A stretch of DNA of 25,243 nucleotides. It comes from a virus. Lineage: Duplodnaviria > Caudoviricetes. Of this stretch, positions 7,707 to 23,677 are shown piece by piece (the stretch's first letter is position 1; each line of letters opens with the position of its first letter). The position numbers and the translations under genes are program-made. Where the stretch lies: IMG/VR virus record IMGVR_UViG_3300031951_001115, positions 1-25,243 of that record. One strand, written 5' to 3'. A model generated the notes under the pieces. It had not been told where the DNA came from. It worked only from the letters and a program-made list of their open reading frames with translations, and did no database searches.

Positions 7707-7734
7707 TTACAACTAGTTCGGGAGAGGAACTTAA

Positions 7735-10536
7735 ATAATAGCTCTGCGTCTAATCGCAGTATTATCCCTCGCACTATTCCTATTCTTATTAGGTCAACAA
7801 TCCGCAAACGCAGAAGAAATTGCACCTACCACGGTGGTGGTGAGCCCTACCCCCACAACTTCCAGCGATCCCGTTCCAACTGTTGTCGTGACAGCTCCTG
7901 TCCAAGAGACCTCGACTGCAACTGTTTCAACGTCGTCTCCAACACCCGAACCTTCATCTTCAACGGCTCCGTCCCCTGAATCCACCCAACAATCCATCCA
8001 GACCCAAAGCTCGCCAACATCAGAAACATCACAACCATCTTCGACACCTACAGTCACCTCCGTTCAAGAAAAAATTGAGACAGCAACTGTAACACTAAAC
8101 ACTGCTGTATCTGCGGCAACTCCAGAGCAAATTTCTGCTGCGGCAACTCCAGTAGCGGAAGCCACCACAGCAATTCAAACTGCTGAGTCAGCTACAGTTG
8201 TAGCCGTAGCGGCTGTTCAAGCTGTGGACTCTCAGACCGCGGTGGTTGCTACCGCAACTACAGCTGTAGATTCTGCAACAGCAGTAGTGGCTACAGCTAC
8301 AACAGCGGTTGAATCTCAAACTGCGGTAGTGGCTACTGCAACAACTAATCTTACAAACGCTCAAAATACTTTGACCCAGCTTCAAAACACCCCATCAGAT
8401 AGCAAAACTTATACAACTTCTGGTTATGTAGCCCCAGTAGCCCCTGAAACACCAACAGTAACAACAACAACTTTGCCACCTATGTATGATGCTGCAACTA
8501 AAATTAACACACCATTTGATATCAAAATGGGCAACACAGTGTACGAAGGTCAAGGAACAGCTAGCCAGATCTACGTTACTTCTAAAGCAACTATTACATT
8601 TGGCACTGGCGACTTTAACTGGTGGGATTTCCCAGCAGGACCTCACATATCCGTCTTTGCTTCTGATTTTATGAGTGCTGGTCCTGGAGCAAGCATCACT
8701 GTTACAACTACTGAAACTACATTAGCGGTTGATTGGGACTTGCATAAATTTGGGGACAATAACAGCCCTCTTACTAACGTTAACTGGACAATGACAGTAA
8801 ACCCAACAACAGGTGAGTGGACAGGCGTTGGAACTGTTGCTGGCAATAAAACTGACTTGTATAACGGACCTCGTATTGGAGTTCGTGAAACTGCTGGTGC
8901 TCCAGTACAGCAAATGACTAATGTAACTAACGAAACTTTAACTGCTCAAATTACTGAGCAAACAGCTGTTGTAGCTGATAAGACAGAGGTTAAAACAGAA
9001 GCAGTTGCAACTTTAGCAACTCTTACAACAGCGAAGACAACAGCAGAGACAACGCTTGCAACAGCTCAGACCACACTAACAACAGAAACTCAAACATTAA
9101 CTACCCTCCAAACATCGGCTACTACAGCGATCACAACTGCTAATACTTTAGCTGACACAGCAACAGCTACAGTTGCTGTTGCAGTTGCCGCTATACAATC
9201 AGTAACACCAACGCCTTCAGTAGTAGTACCACCAACGACAGAACAATCAAACCCGGGATCAAACCAATCACAAACTTCGCCGCCGGATCAAAACTCTTCC
9301 AGTGGGGGCGAACAAAATACCCAATCACCAACCACGCCGGAATCGACCACAGGTGGAACGCAAAATCCTGAATCTTCACCTACTCCTCCTTCTCCTCAAC
9401 CAGAACCTACACCAACTCCAGTAGAACCTACAACTCCACCAATGGACCCGGTCCCAACAAATCCTGATCCTGCACCACAACCTGAGCCTGTTCCTGTGCC
9501 AAATCCTGTTGAACCTTCACCAGAGCCACAACCACAGCCTGAGCCTTTACCAGAGCCAACCCCAGAGCCTGAACCTGTTCCTGAGCCATCACCTTTACCT
9601 GATCCTGAGCCTTCTCAAGAAGAGCAACCTCAGCCCGAGCCTGAACCAGAGCCGCTTCCAGAGCCCGCACCTACTGAGCCCTCCACAGAAGAGCCAGAGA
9701 CACCCACAGAACCCCAACCAGAGCCGGTAGAGCCCGAAGAGCAACCCGTAGAGCCCGAGGCGCCTGTTGAGGAAGTTGATACACCCGAGGAATCAACACC
9801 AGAACCAGAGTCACCAGAGCCAGAGCAAGAAAATCCGTCCACAGAACCATTAGAACCTCCTATTGAAGAACAGGAGCCTAGCACACCTGAAGAGGAAGTC
9901 GCTAGTGCCGTAGAGGATGTTTTATCTGATGGCAAACTTTCTGCTTCTGATGCTGAAGCGGTTATGGATGCTTTAAATGCAGACGGAGAAGTTACAGTTG
10001 AAGAAGTAACCGCTCTTTCTGATGCCTTAGCTGCTGACGGTAAATTGACTACCGCTGAAAAAGAATTGGTTGCAGAAGCTCTTATTGAATCAGTAGCTCC
10101 TGGAGAAACACTTACAAAAGAACAGATCCAGGACGCTGGTATTGAGTATAAAGACCTTCCAGCAGAGACTCCTGTGGAGGTTAGGCAGGATGAAAACGGT
10201 AATGAAGTTATAATTACAGCAGACGTAGCTGCGGCTCTAGTTTTACTAGAGAACCCATCAGAATTAGTTGGCGCAATATTTAGCGACCCGGGGGAAGCAC
10301 TACAAGCACTTGGAAGTATCGGTGCGGATATGTCTCCTGAAGAACGTGAAGAAGCAACAGAAATGGTTGTTGCTGCTGTTGTTGCTGCTGGAGCTGCTAT
10401 GAACGCAGTTGGTGCAGCAGCCAGTGCTGCTAGTACCACTACCGGAGGATCTTCTTCTGGTGGCGGGGGAGGAAGTTCTGGTGGGGGAGGAGCCCCTTCT
10501 GGAGATTCAAAGGGAGTAAGGAGAAGAAAGCCTTGA
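7735..10536 (+). CDS. Large secreted/membrane-anchored Thr/Pro/Glu-rich surface protein
   Basis: The frame is open from 7735 and encodes a signal peptide ([24 protein letters not shown]|EE). It continues through a Thr/Ala helical region, a beta domain, a long PE-rich stalk, acidic repeats, a C-terminal hydrophobic helix and a basic RRRKP tail. Start codon uncertain (ORF track gives 7834). Confidence 0.8.
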
Positions 10537-13866: not shown

Positions 13867-15963
13867 ATGCCAGTCTTAGGTATTGTACACGGTACTAAGA
13901 TTGGCCCAAATTCACCAACAGTAACCTCTGTAACCGACGTAGGAATAAACAGAGAATATGACAATGGTGCGGTCGATGTTGCGTTTAGCTTACCAGCTGT
14001 TAATACTGCCGTTTCTTACAAAGTAGTCTCTAGCAATGGACAAGTAGCTACTGGCAACTCATCACCTATTCGTGTTCAAAATTTACCAACAGGTATTAAC
14101 ACTACATTTACAGTGTTTGGAATTAATGATATTACTATTGAAGGCCCACCTTCAGCTGTTTCATCAGGTGTAACTGTCACCACTGTTCCATTTAAACCAA
14201 CAATGGGAGTTGCAACTCCAGGTAATGGCCAAGCTTTTGTTGTCTTTAGTATATTAAACTCTGGTGGAAAGCCCGTTATTTCTTATGCCGTAACCGGATC
14301 CCCTGCTGGAACAGCTACAGATACCGGCTCACCAATTACAGTACCTAATTTAAATAATGATGTCCCACACGCATTTACTGTTGTTGCTATAAATGCAAAC
14401 GGTCCTTCTCTACCAAGTAACCCTTCAAACCTAACTGTACCTTCTACAGGTAGCGGCGGAGTGCCTGCTGGAACTTATTACTGCTATAGCTCAGATTGTT
14501 TTACATCTGATGGTACAAATTTTGCTTATCTTCAAGCTCCAATCTTTACATCAGTATCTCCTTCTGATCAGTCTTCACTTACAAACTACTCGGGTGGTTT
14601 TGGGTTTGCTCGTGGTACTCGCGTTACTTACTGTAACACTGTGGAAAACACCGCTCGGATTGGAGCTCAACAATCTATTTGTCAAGCTAATTATGTAGAG
14701 CCGGACCCACCACCACCATGTGACCCTACCGAATACACAAGTGAATGTGGACCTTACACAGCCGGCCCTCAAGTAGATGGGTGCTCTCCAACATCAGCTA
14801 ACTACGGCTACACAATTACAGAGACCGCTACAAAAACTAGAACTATCTATGATTGCAACGGTATTATTATTCAAACATCTGTTCTAACTTGTACTAGAAG
14901 CACTTTTACAACAACAGTTGTAAATGATCCGCGCTGCCCTGGATATGTAGCCCAAAGAGTTAGCTCCGGCGTAACAAGTAGTGGAAATACAAATACAGCT
15001 GTATCTTCTGGAACTACCTCTGGAACTACCTCTGGAACTACAGCTACAACAGCTTCAGGTACCCTTGTTCGAGATCCAAATGGAGCTGGTTATACGGACC
15101 CAAATACTGGGGTGACTTCAACTTGGTATTCAACAGTTGATGCTGACGGAAATACTCAACTTTATCTTCTTGAAGAAACTGCGCCTGGTGTAGTAGATCC
15201 TAATGCAACAGCAAACCAAGAGCCTATAGTTATTGAAAAAGGTGCTTTTGATTACTGGTCTGATCCAAACGCTCAATGGAATTTTAATTGGGATGGTGGT
15301 CTTGGGGGGTCTCTTAGTGATTCATTTGCTGTAAACATTGACTATGACGCATTAGCTGCCCTTAACGCATCTTATGAACAACCAACTACATCAGAGCCAA
15401 CAGTTGATTATGGAACAGGCGGTTCAGTTACAGACTCTGCTGCTAGTGGTGGCGGTGGTGGAGGTGGTTGCTTTACCTACGGTACATCAATTTTAATGGC
15501 TGATGGGTCTATTAAGTTAATTCAAGATGTTAAAAAAGGCGATGTCCTAAAGTCTATGAAATTAACAGATTTCCCTCATGGCGATGACCCAAGTGCTTGG
15601 TATCCAAAATCAATGTGGAGCTCAGAGGATGAAGATGAGTTTGAGGTAGTTAGCTCTGTAGTAACTCACGTAAAACATAGCCAAACTCTAAATTACTTCA
15701 TAATTAATGATAAGTACAAAGTTACTTACGAGCACTATGTCCTTATTAAGCGGGCCGGGTTATGGCAAATGGAGCGCGTAGATAACCTACTAGTTGGAGA
15801 TTTATTTATAGCTCCAGACTCAACCACTATTGAAATTACCTCAATTAAGAACTTAAATGAGAAAATTTGGGTTGTAGACATAGACGTTGAAGATAATGAC
15901 TTCTACTTTGCCGATGGTATACTTGTACACAACTACAAGTACTACGGAAACTTTGTTCTTTAA
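13867..15963 (+). CDS. FN3-repeat, Cys-rich virion protein with C-terminal Hint (intein-like) domain
   Basis: Two FN3-like modules (SPIRVQNL..G..TFTVFGIN; SPITVPNL...HAFTVVAINANGPS.PS.PSN), a Cys-rich middle, a poly-Gly linker, then CFTYGTSILMADG...VTYEH...FYFADGILVHN. Confidence 0.85.
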   Translation: MPVLGIVHGTKIGPNSPTVTSVTDVGINREYDNGAVDVAFSLPAVNTAVSYKVVSSNGQVATGNSSPIRVQNLPTGINTTFTVFGINDITIEGPPSAVSSGVTVTTVPFKPTMGVATPGNGQAFVVFSILNSGGKPVISYAVTGSPAGTATDTGSPITVPNLNNDVPHAFTVVAINANGPSLPSNPSNLTVPSTGSGGVPAGTYYCYSSDCFTSDGTNFAYLQAPIFTSVSPSDQSSLTNYSGGFGFARGTRVTYCNTVENTARIGAQQSICQANYVEPDPPPPCDPTEYTSECGPYTAGPQVDGCSPTSANYGYTITETATKTRTIYDCNGIIIQTSVLTCTRSTFTTTVVNDPRCPGYVAQRVSSGVTSSGNTNTAVSSGTTSGTTSGTTATTASGTLVRDPNGAGYTDPNTGVTSTWYSTVDADGNTQLYLLEETAPGVVDPNATANQEPIVIEKGAFDYWSDPNAQWNFNWDGGLGGSLSDSFAVNIDYDALAALNASYEQPTTSEPTVDYGTGGSVTDSAASGGGGGGGCFTYGTSILMADGSIKLIQDVKKGDVLKSMKLTDFPHGDDPSAWYPKSMWSSEDEDEFEVVSSVVTHVKHSQTLNYFIINDKYKVTYEHYVLIKRAGLWQMERVDNLLVGDLFIAPDSTTIEITSIKNLNEKIWVVDIDVEDNDFYFADGILVHNYKYYGNFVL
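15469..15933 (+). other. Hint autoprocessing domain (155 aa, no homing endonuclease)
   Basis: Block A Cys1, block B TxxH, block F DIDVED..F and terminal His-Asn; the +1 residue is Tyr. Confidence 0.85.
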
Positions 15964-18715: not shown

Positions 18716-18726
18716 TTCTGCTCCTC

Positions 18727-18797
18727 TCAGTAATAAAAGACGCTATTGCTAGCGTCTCTCATGTTCTAGATTGCCACAGCGTTACACTCAAGGTCAA
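18727..18797 (-). promoter_or_regulatory. Promoter and structured leader/uORF of the transglycosylase-whiB operon
   Basis: Minus strand TTGACC-N18-CAATCT-N5-ATG (11-aa uORF MRDASNSVFYY, 18762..18727); hairpin AGACGCTA-GCAA-TAGCGTCT; the uORF stop overlaps the RBS. Confidence 0.6.
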
Positions 18798-19175: not shown

Positions 19176-19227
19176 TACTTTTATAGTACTGGGGTCTTGT
19201 ACCCCACCTACAAGGAAAGAGAGAAAA

Positions 19228-19422
19228 ATGAATATAGCTCAGCTTCAAGCTGCGTTTGGTTCGTACCTTAGAGCCTCAATTGCGGCAGTAGCAGCTCTTT
19301 ACATGAGCGGTATTACTGACCCAAAGACGCTCCTTAACGCTTTTATTGCAGGTCTTATCGGACCGCTTGCTAAAGCCGTTAATCCAAAAGACACGTCAAT
19401 AGGAATAAACGCGTCTAAGTAA
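19228..19422 (+). CDS. Putative holin
   Basis: 64 aa with two hydrophobic helices and an NPKD tail; AAGGA RBS; start at ATG 19228. Confidence 0.65.
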   Translation: MNIAQLQAAFGSYLRASIAAVAALYMSGITDPKTLLNAFIAGLIGPLAKAVNPKDTSIGINASK

Positions 19423-20519: not shown

Positions 20520-20815
20520 AAACATACGGTCAACTATACGTCGGAAAACTTGAGTACTACCACCGCAAGCCTTTACCAATTGTTGAGATTGGATGGACCC
20601 AGGAAACGGATCACCCCTACCGTAAAGGCACTTGTTTAGTATTTAGGTTGCCTTTTACTAAGCCAGGGTTTTATATGGGTAAGTGGATCATTGGATCTGA
20701 GTTGCCATTTGAAGCAGATAATGCAATAGACTCCCGCCTATCGGATGCTATGAAGGTCCGCAATGTTTGGAAGCCGGAGGATGGCAGTTATGAAGAAGCT
20801 TTTTTCAAAGAGTAA
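20516..20815 (+). CDS. Hypothetical protein
   Basis: ATGA overlap; 99 aa. Confidence 0.7.
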   Translation: MKTYGQLYVGKLEYYHRKPLPIVEIGWTQETDHPYRKGTCLVFRLPFTKPGFYMGKWIIGSELPFEADNAIDSRLSDAMKVRNVWKPEDGSYEEAFFKE

Positions 20816-21041
20816 CAAAGACTGGGATAAACCATTCTCAGAAAAAGTAGCAAAACGGGTATCTCGAATCCCTACTGCTGAGCTAGAAATGTGGCTAGAG
20901 CAATCTATTTATGAGGTTGGTCGATGCCTTTCTGGTTACACAAAAAGTCGGGAAATGGTTTACCTACAAGAAGCTAGGACTGGTGCAGAAGCTTTACATG
21001 CAGTTGTAGAAGAGCTGTACAAAAGGAACGCTAAGCCGTAA
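20790..21041 (+). CDS. Hypothetical helical protein
   Basis: GGAGG RBS before ATG 20790 (MKKLFSK...). Confidence 0.7.
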   Translation: MKKLFSKSNKDWDKPFSEKVAKRVSRIPTAELEMWLEQSIYEVGRCLSGYTKSREMVYLQEARTGAEALHAVVEELYKRNAKP

Positions 21042-21074
21042 GTAGATTTGTCGACTTTATGATAAACTAGGTCT

Positions 21075-21147
21075 TGCCTCTCTCTTCCTCTCCCCGTGTG
21101 GTGGCAGCAAAGGGCCCTGGGTTTAATAGCCCAGGCTTTTTGTTTTT
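21075..21147 (+). ncRNA. Candidate small RNA with CU-rich loop and its own terminator
   Basis: TAAACT -10 at 21063-21068; TGCC-[TCTCTCTTCCTCTCCCCGTGTGGT]-GGCA hairpin; terminator CCTGGGT-TTAATA-GCCCAGG-CTTTTTGTTTTT. Confidence 0.5.
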
Positions 21148-21166
21148 AACTAGACTTAAGGTTAAT

Positions 21167-22756
21167 ATGGAAAACAACATTGTTTTAGAAGATGATGACG
21201 AAGAGTTCTTCCCGGTAGACGCGGAGGAAGAAGATCTTGCGCCCGAAGAAGAGTTTGAAGAACTTGATGAATTATCTAGGGAGTTTGTTAAAAAAATAAC
21301 TGACAGAACTGTTCAGTTTATGACAGCTCTTGTTGGTCATGAGTTACACCCATACCAAATGCCGTTAGCTCGTCGCATCATTGAATCTGTAATTATTAAT
21401 GACGGTGAAGAAATTACTGCGCTTGCAGCACGTCAGTCAGGTAAATCAGAAACTATTGCTAACACTGTAGCTACACTTATGGTTTTACTTCCAAGGCTTG
21501 CAAAGATGTACCCGGATCTTCTTGGTAAGTTTAAAGATGGAATTTGGATCGGTATGTTTGCTCCTGTTGAAGGTCAGGTAGAAACTTTATTTGGTCGTAC
21601 AGTAAATCGCCTTACATCAGAGCGAGCTCTTGAAATTCTTGGTGATCCAGAGATTGATGATTCTCTTGGAAAAGTTCCGGGTGTAACACGGCAAATTAAA
21701 CTTAAAAACTCAGGTAGCAGTCTTATGATGATGACAGCTAACCCTAGAGCTAAAATTGAATCTAAGTCTTTTCATTTAATTGTTATTGACGAGTGCCAGG
21801 AGGCGGACGACTTTGTTGTATCAAAATCTATTAGCCCTATGCTTGCTTACTACTCAGGAACTATGGTTAAGACAGGCACTCCAACTACAAGTAAAAACAA
21901 TTTTTACCGTTCTATCCAATTAAACAAAAGACGGCAAACTGGCAGAACTTCACGTCAAAACCACTTTGAGTGGGATTGGCGAGACGTAGCTAAGGTAAAT
22001 GTTAACTACGGCAAGTTTATTAAAAAAGAGATGCTTCGTATTGGGGAGGACTCTGATGAGTTCCAGATGTCGTACTCATGCAAATGGTTGCTGGAGCGAG
22101 GAATGTTCGTTACATCAGCTATTATGGACGAGCTCGGTGACACCTCGCAAGAAACTGTTAAAGCTTGGCACAGAACACCAGTCGTTGTGGGAATTGACCC
22201 TGCAAGAAAGCTTGACTCCACAGTAGTTACAGTTGTCTGGGTAGATTGGGATCGCCCAGATGAGTTTGGTTATTACGACCACCGCGTACTTAACTGGTTA
22301 GAGATTCAAGGCGACGACTGGGAAGATCAGTACTTCCAGATTGTTAACTTCTTAAATAACTATGACGTATTAGCTGTTGGTATTGACGCTAATGGTGTTG
22401 GAGACGCGGTAGCTCAAAGAATGAAACTTCTTCTACCAAGAGCTGAAGTTCATTCAATAGGCAGCAGCCAACCTGAGCAATCAAAGCGTTGGAAGCACCT
22501 AAAAGCTTTAATTGATCGACGTATGGTTGGGTGGCCAGCTCACGCAAAAACCCGTCGCCTTAGAACCTGGAAAAGGTTCTATCAACAAATGACAGACTTA
22601 GAAACAAAGTTCCAAGGCCCTAACTTCTTAGCTCATGCCCCAGAGGAAGCCCATGCTCATGACGATTACGCCGACTCTTTGGCTATTGCTTGCGCCCTAA
22701 CCATGGATCTGACAATGCCGCAGGTAGAAGTCTCCTCATCCCCATTTTTTAGATAA
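21167..22756 (+). CDS. terL: Terminase large subunit
   Basis: YQ Q-motif, Walker A ARQSGKS, Walker B LIVIDE, motif III TGTP, RNase H-like nuclease GIDPA...DD.ADS. Start taken at ATG 21167 (AAGG RBS) because the longer ORF runs through a terminator. Confidence 0.95.
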   Translation: MENNIVLEDDDEEFFPVDAEEEDLAPEEEFEELDELSREFVKKITDRTVQFMTALVGHELHPYQMPLARRIIESVIINDGEEITALAARQSGKSETIANTVATLMVLLPRLAKMYPDLLGKFKDGIWIGMFAPVEGQVETLFGRTVNRLTSERALEILGDPEIDDSLGKVPGVTRQIKLKNSGSSLMMMTANPRAKIESKSFHLIVIDECQEADDFVVSKSISPMLAYYSGTMVKTGTPTTSKNNFYRSIQLNKRRQTGRTSRQNHFEWDWRDVAKVNVNYGKFIKKEMLRIGEDSDEFQMSYSCKWLLERGMFVTSAIMDELGDTSQETVKAWHRTPVVVGIDPARKLDSTVVTVVWVDWDRPDEFGYYDHRVLNWLEIQGDDWEDQYFQIVNFLNNYDVLAVGIDANGVGDAVAQRMKLLLPRAEVHSIGSSQPEQSKRWKHLKALIDRRMVGWPAHAKTRRLRTWKRFYQQMTDLETKFQGPNFLAHAPEEAHAHDDYADSLAIACALTMDLTMPQVEVSSSPFFR

Positions 22757-23622: not shown

Positions 23623-23677
23623 CGGTTTGTCGACATTTGTGTTAGTCTATACGTATTAGAAGTAGAAGGGTGTTTTG

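Follow-up and report, generated by a model that had tools for sequence, protein, structure and literature searches.

What is encoded in the short gene-free stretch just upstream of terL in this phage, and what might its product act on? To answer this, we analysed a window of 25,243 nucleotides from a phage record, with a GC content of 45%, which carries genes for the terminase, WhiB and the portal protein and for a CHAP endolysin. The downstream neighbour of the element is the gene for TerL, the terminase large subunit (21167-22756, plus strand), with matches to Pfam Terminase_6C and 6N; TerL homology starts at ATG 21167, which we take as the TerL start. The upstream neighbour is a small conserved gene without annotated function (20763-21041, plus strand; likely start at 20790), for which no Pfam or PHROG match was found and which also adjoins the element in relatives. 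The terminases of Streptomyces phage BRock and its relatives are 53-54% identical to the TerL of the window. WhiB and TerL point to an actinobacterial host, and the GC content makes a freshwater Nanopelagicales host plausible. Scans of GTDB with TerL and WhiB identified no host.

An earlier note on this DNA had described a -10 box, a hairpin with a C/U tract and a terminator in this stretch, and all three were located where it had placed them. The promoter has an extended -10 element, TG-A-TAAACT (21060-21068, plus strand). TAnnnT was present in 71 of the 72 distinct copies compared and the TG extension in 52 of them, against a rate of 9% for the -10 pattern at random positions. A sigma-70 scan of the window did not call this box because it is not accompanied by a -35 box. 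The spacing between the -10 box and the purine of (G/A)CC was 6-7 nt in 68 of the 72 copies, and we therefore placed +1 at G21076. Transcription from there to the end of the U-tract would give a small RNA of about 72 nt (21076-21147, plus strand). Just 5' of the -10 box lies TTTGTCGAC (21047-21055, plus strand), possibly the site of a regulator, and a TCGAC-like motif occupied this position in 48/72 distinct copies. The sole other exact copy of TTTGTCGAC in the window precedes the portal gene, at 23626; when one mismatch was allowed, the window held six matches compared with 5.3 expected, which is chance level. As this upstream motif is common to the element and the portal gene, it hints at late expression of the element.

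The predicted RNA has two domains. The 5' domain (21076-21105, plus strand) consists of a 3-bp GCC/GGC stem, in which 21076-78 pairs with 21103-05, and a 24-nt loop containing a 17-nt pyrimidine tract (21079-21095). This tract was on average 97.8% pyrimidine across the 72 distinct copies. In the loop, CCCGT is near-invariant and a C4 run is present, and the loop remained unpaired in the folds. The stem was GCC/GGC in 66 of 79 copies, ACC/GGT in 4, GCC/GGT in 2 and the mismatched ACC/GGC in 7; it can pair in 72/79 and cannot in 7/79. The short hairpin proposed earlier is present, but its stem is just 3-4 bp long and is absent from the RNAalifold prediction.

The 3' domain is a terminator-like hairpin with a U-tract (21106-21147, plus strand; 13 consensus pairs) and a variable, A/U-rich loop, and it likely ends the upstream operon as well. 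Covariation in relatives, which the earlier note had named as a check, was found in this hairpin: two-sided changes occurred at 11 of the 13 pairs, and 96.6% of cells were paired. None of 500 shuffles reached this level, and slid controls reached 56% at most. The lower stem covaries even where the compensatory changes remove U residues of the U-tract, which points to selection on RNA structure beyond that of a bare terminator. Folding energies beat those of shuffled sequences only modestly (z -1.65 for the 101-nt stretch and z -2.21 for 21076-21147); it is conservation that raises the unit above chance. A separate -10 box, TAGACT (21151-21156, plus strand), serves terL; TAnnnT lies no more than 24 nt from the TerL ATG in 76/79 distinct copies. 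Since terL owns a -10 box, the unit is not needed as a terL leader.

We then compared the element across related loci. It precedes terL in 77 of 80 loci, these being the best 80 of 603 confirmed TerL loci. Two of the three exceptions are cut before the element, and the third, L039, has no element. In L039 (1900-2100) the upstream gene runs directly into terL, through either deletion of the element or misassembly. One copy was present in each of fifteen large records, four of which were covered to just short of their ends. A pattern scan of viral contigs gave 119 loci; of 116 examined, 74 lay at terL and had both the promoter and the hairpin, whereas the remaining 42, judged by eye, were without this context. 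Model R1, which scored 87 bits at the window element, recovered 66 of 77 sources, including 17 outside its training set; the 11 that it missed comprised L039 and ten loci whose TerL is distant. In 1380 pairs whose TerL proteins were less than 88% identical, the loop was 82% identical, compared with 56% for the hairpin loop and 42% for TerL four-fold sites. This loop conservation (0.82 where four-fold sites stand at 0.42) upholds another expectation of the earlier note. Most loop differences were swaps between C and U or indels of CU, and there were 30 loop variants among the 72 distinct copies; such changes would retain pairing with G/A tracts. Some columns are invariant, however: the CT of columns 9-10 and, within the CCCGT..GG region, its CC, T and GG.

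Outside this group the element was not found at terL: at E 1e-6, R1 had no match around terL in six Streptomyces-type or other distant loci and four MAG loci, and one of four whole distant-phage records held one weak match (E 0.001). The loop pattern gave 14 scattered matches in GTDB, none titled as an actinobacterium. A host homologue was also sought with R1 in 16 acI-type genomes, with only 150 candidates scored per genome; the two weak matches (E 0.004 and 0.04) looked like ordinary terminator-like hairpins, and this candidate was dropped. In Streptomyces phage LuckySocke (L099 5576-5821), the slot before terL is occupied by a membrane-protein gene on the reverse strand; a long hairpin on the plus strand overlaps this gene, lies behind a -10-like box and could be an antisense control. 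In L077 (2615-2843), tRNA-Thr and tRNA-Asn genes lie directly behind the element and before terL. An estimated 1300 or so IMG/VR stretches match the TerL patterns, and the RNA marks a widespread freshwater phage family.

The element has the features of a stand-alone sRNA gene, with its own promoter, its own terminator, no coding capacity and conservation. The -10 spacing, the covariation and the loop identity support the earlier reading of the stretch as a separate RNA gene, non-coding and conserved, whose C/U loop is exposed, and a discrete RNA is very probably made from it. Seventeen metatranscriptome runs hold small shares of the region; none of the eight examined covers the element, but these were contigs from ordinary libraries and are uninformative on this point.

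The likeness of the loop to those of the actinobacterial 6C and B11 RNAs, noted earlier, was supported: a C-rich single strand is exposed, and the C4 run and CCCGT are conserved. 6C works by means of C-rich loops and needs no chaperone (PMC6486639), and B11 represses by pairing with ribosome-binding sites (10.1101/2022.10.27.514065). The element shares with them the short length, the actinobacterial setting and an exposed, C-rich loop that could pair with RBS regions rich in G. Unlike 6C and B11, which have two C-rich loops and are host chromosomal genes, it is encoded by a phage, has a single 24-nt loop of mixed C and U closed by a 3-bp stem, and matches no Rfam family. No gathering-level Rfam match was found in the window or six relatives, and 6C was absent from the matches up to E 10. 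The cuckoo (CcsR-type) RNAs of Alphaproteobacteria also resemble the element in having a C/U-rich loop like an anti-SD; as described in PMC4615179, however, they have two to four hairpins with CCUCCUCCC in each, whereas the element has one loop without CCUCCUCCC and belongs to another host phylum. CCUCCUCCC was absent from all 30 loop variants of the 72 distinct copies. The C4 antisense RNA of P1/P7 is likewise phage-encoded, acts in trans and pairs its loops near the RBS, but it has defined long target sites (PMC12197685), and no conserved target of this type was found for the element. The Rfam c4-a1b1 model scored 12.3 bits on the element, below its cut-off of 46.7.

The element was described nowhere in the literature found. 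Candidate structured RNAs from IMG/VR, some of them upstream of terminases, are catalogued in PMC10690425, and the alignments of that work may include the element as an unnamed listing; PMC4626039 yielded nothing further on it. For riboregulation in actinobacterial phages in general, we found just reviews and host sRNAs, and the topic is little described. The element appears to be an uncatalogued phage-encoded C/U-loop sRNA that probably works like 6C/B11.

The mechanism we favour, at about even confidence, is that of a predicted trans-acting phage sRNA whose C/U loop pairs with G/A-rich RBS regions, in the manner of 6C and B11 and without chaperones. The unit would form a phage gene in its own right, producing a small RNA of about 70 nt, whose unpaired C/U loop would base-pair with G/A-rich ribosome-binding regions and dampen translation of the paired mRNAs. 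Its targets may be several and may include host mRNAs; the holin leader is the best candidate, though unproven. For this predicted sRNA, we infer transcription, late timing, chaperone-free pairing, repression and target identity. The presumed host group of these phages is not known to have Hfq. If the RNA does repress the holin or SD-led host mRNAs, phages would be employing the C-rich-loop mechanism of their hosts, which needs no chaperone, to control when lysis occurs or to redirect translation. The RNA is short and easily synthesised, and its roughly 30 natural loop variants are ready-made compensatory alleles.

We next examined the targets that had been proposed for the loop. The quoted purine sites are present (7720-7729, 19213-19223, 18721-18728 on the minus strand, and the early AGGGG sites). 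One of them is the RBS of the large surface protein (7720-7729, plus strand; gene 7735-10536), which is complementary to the loop over 10 nt without a mismatch and is now a weak candidate target. With at most one mismatch, the window holds three matches to this complement compared with 1.28 expected, one of the three being the loop itself, and 12 of 100 shuffles reached three; the match is near chance level. Nor is this RBS supported as the explanation of the loop, as the gene is absent from its slot in 8/32 distinct loci that keep the loop, and no match to the gene was found in any stretch of record G003. Its cognate signal was unstable, at z -2.55 (n=23) compared with z -0.31 in a smaller, differently anchored set (n=14), in which four of six pairs were better and one worse. 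A co-evolving surface-protein RBS was striking by eye, but 5 of 92 orthogroups reached z -2.55, and we rejected it.

The same gene has other unusual features. It encodes a large Pro/Glu/Thr-rich membrane protein with an apparent non-AUG start, ATA in the window; the starts in relatives are ATT, ATC, TTG or CTG, with ATG in two. Homologues were seen in L240, L250-L259, L272, L308, L313, L319, L332, L340, L351, L403 and L423. A conserved CTGCG-N6-CGCAG hairpin lies a few codons past the start, and this hairpin together with the non-AUG start suggests that translation of the protein may be tightly limited.

The holin-like gene (19228-19422; with its leader 19188-19422, plus strand) was also among the targets named earlier, and it remains the best candidate without being proven. 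The gene has no Pfam or PHROG match, and its label comes from size and hydrophobicity. Its leader gave the best cognate signal, first of 27 families with z -3.5; a test on 147 loci, which supplied 65 distinct pairs, gave z -3.85, compared with -1.22 for a control stretch further upstream. Among 92 orthogroups it was second in cognate preference and eighth in pairing rank. In 15 independent near-relative pairs, however, seven were better and seven worse, and the signal was gone; it may reflect shared ancestry. A more specific version of the trans-acting reading is that a late, family-wide phage sRNA sets lysis timing as a trans RNA antiholin, with two-site pairing to the holin leader and co-evolution of loop and leader across clades. 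The 5' part of the loop would pair with the SD, and the CGUGUG part with a site further upstream. We regard this version as unlikely on present evidence. By eye, the stretch ahead of the SD in holin leaders (window 19180-19227 and homologues) often contains a -10 box of its own and a short hairpin.

The wider tests covered all phage start regions, host genomes and 16S rRNA. Tuning of the loop to phage RBSs was not supported: in 15 records, natural loops did not outperform shuffled ones in pairing (mean z -0.8 to +1.2), and top-decile pairing with start regions reached z -2 or lower in just 2/15 records. The commonest SD of the phage is AAGGAG (187 of 1706 start regions), and the loop contains no exact complement of AAGGAG(A). 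The suggested sparing of leaderless phage mRNAs was not supported either: an SD was present in 1111 of 1706 gene calls, and 155 were leaderless-like, by a crude caller that favours SD. In a cognate-versus-swapped test of 21 genes, four reached z -2.1 or lower, namely those for the surface protein, the holin, the transglycosylase and a 133-aa membrane protein. Three of these had been named beforehand in the earlier note, which is mildly encouraging, but none survives correction for 21 tests. Cognate z values across the 92 orthogroups had a mean of -0.34 and a standard deviation of 1.15, wider than the null. At the two top-ranked phage sites, cognate loops were not preferred (z +0.39 and -0.82), and the sites look like codons at the end of the upstream gene. 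In 61 genomes of the Nanopelagicaceae family, a 13-nt complement was found in 21, compared with 19 for the reversed control, with no conserved site; among 30 loci inspected, the matches fell at unrelated genes. We also rejected pairing with 16S rRNA, since its attractive energies were no better than those of shuffles in 12 loop variants.

A different use of the loop would be as a protein decoy that titrates a host factor (ribosomal protein S1, Rho, or a cold-shock or KH protein) or mimics the 16S 3' tail. The loop shows no target-specific tuning, a conserved target was found neither in the phage nor in candidate hosts, and the loop is held to pyrimidines by selection although C and U may be exchanged and indels occur, all of which favours a decoy. 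However, the column-specific invariants exceed what a generic pyrimidine binder needs, and for Rho in particular a tract of about 20 nt is short for a loading site. We consider the decoy unlikely. Under the trans-acting sRNA reading, a mixed C/U loop could pair with many purine tracts, and this would account for its strong conservation without one co-evolving target. The element might instead work in cis as a late-gene switch, giving a short transcript until a phage factor at TTTGTCGAC or the C/U loop permits read-through to terL and the head genes. In phage lambda, pR' and Q antitermination provide such an arrangement, with a promoter, a short RNA and a terminator before the late genes; the layout here is alike, but terL differs in having its own -10 box, present in 76/79 copies. 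The fixed place before terL agrees with a switch, the 74 of 116 pattern loci at terL being those with promoter and hairpin, as do the conserved motif directly 5' of the -10 box, a U-tract that is short once the lower stem pairs, and the tRNA genes of L077, which lie behind the hairpin without room for a promoter of their own. Against it, the upstream motif also precedes the portal gene, where neither loop nor terminator is present, and the Streptomyces relatives express terL without the unit. A cis switch is a distinctly unlikely explanation.

Two further explanations dispense with a functional RNA loop. The terminator and promoters might be all that matters, with the tract acting in DNA as a packaging start or a protein-binding site; the single copy beside terL would suit this, and the covarying part is the terminator-like hairpin, no 5' stem being predicted by RNAalifold. 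However, a promoter fixed 6-7 nt 5' of the tract with a purine at +1, complementary GCC/GGC arms that include four ACC/GGT swaps, and the tolerance of indels and C/T swaps fit RNA better than a site in DNA, which we judge very unlikely. The remaining explanation is translation: TerL might begin at TTG 21074 with a longer N-terminus, or a peptide might be read from the minus strand behind the purine tract. The earlier note had seen no plausible ORF here. In the window genome this is not strictly so, because TTG 21074 is in frame with terL and the frame is open from there, but the frame is open through the loop in just 5 of 79 distinct copies and is incidental, in keeping with the other expectation that the element is not translated as the TerL N-terminus. 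On the minus strand, a start followed by 15 or more codons was found in 4/79 distinct copies, and the loop indels have lengths that are not multiples of three. By sequence comparison, the translation reading is largely refuted, and we give it almost no credence.

Several other observations were made in the window and in related genomes. A promoter-like repeat, GACACGCC ... ATAAC[A/G]ATTTGATAAC, occurs in three copies (1189-1241, 1886-1938 and 2939-2980) 5' of minus-strand genes; it includes GACAC, which resembles a WhiA site. Two gene-free stretches (1270-1345 and 1960-2045) share CAACACAAACATT beside hairpins and have C-rich tracts on the minus strand, and they are possibly further RNA elements. 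A gene of 698 aa at 13867-15963 has weak Pfam matches below the cut-off, fibronectin-III-like and, at the C-terminus, Hint-like. In L633 (1500-1680), a Nanopelagicaceae genome, a hairpin unit of about 50 nt occurs twice just 5' of the tmRNA gene.
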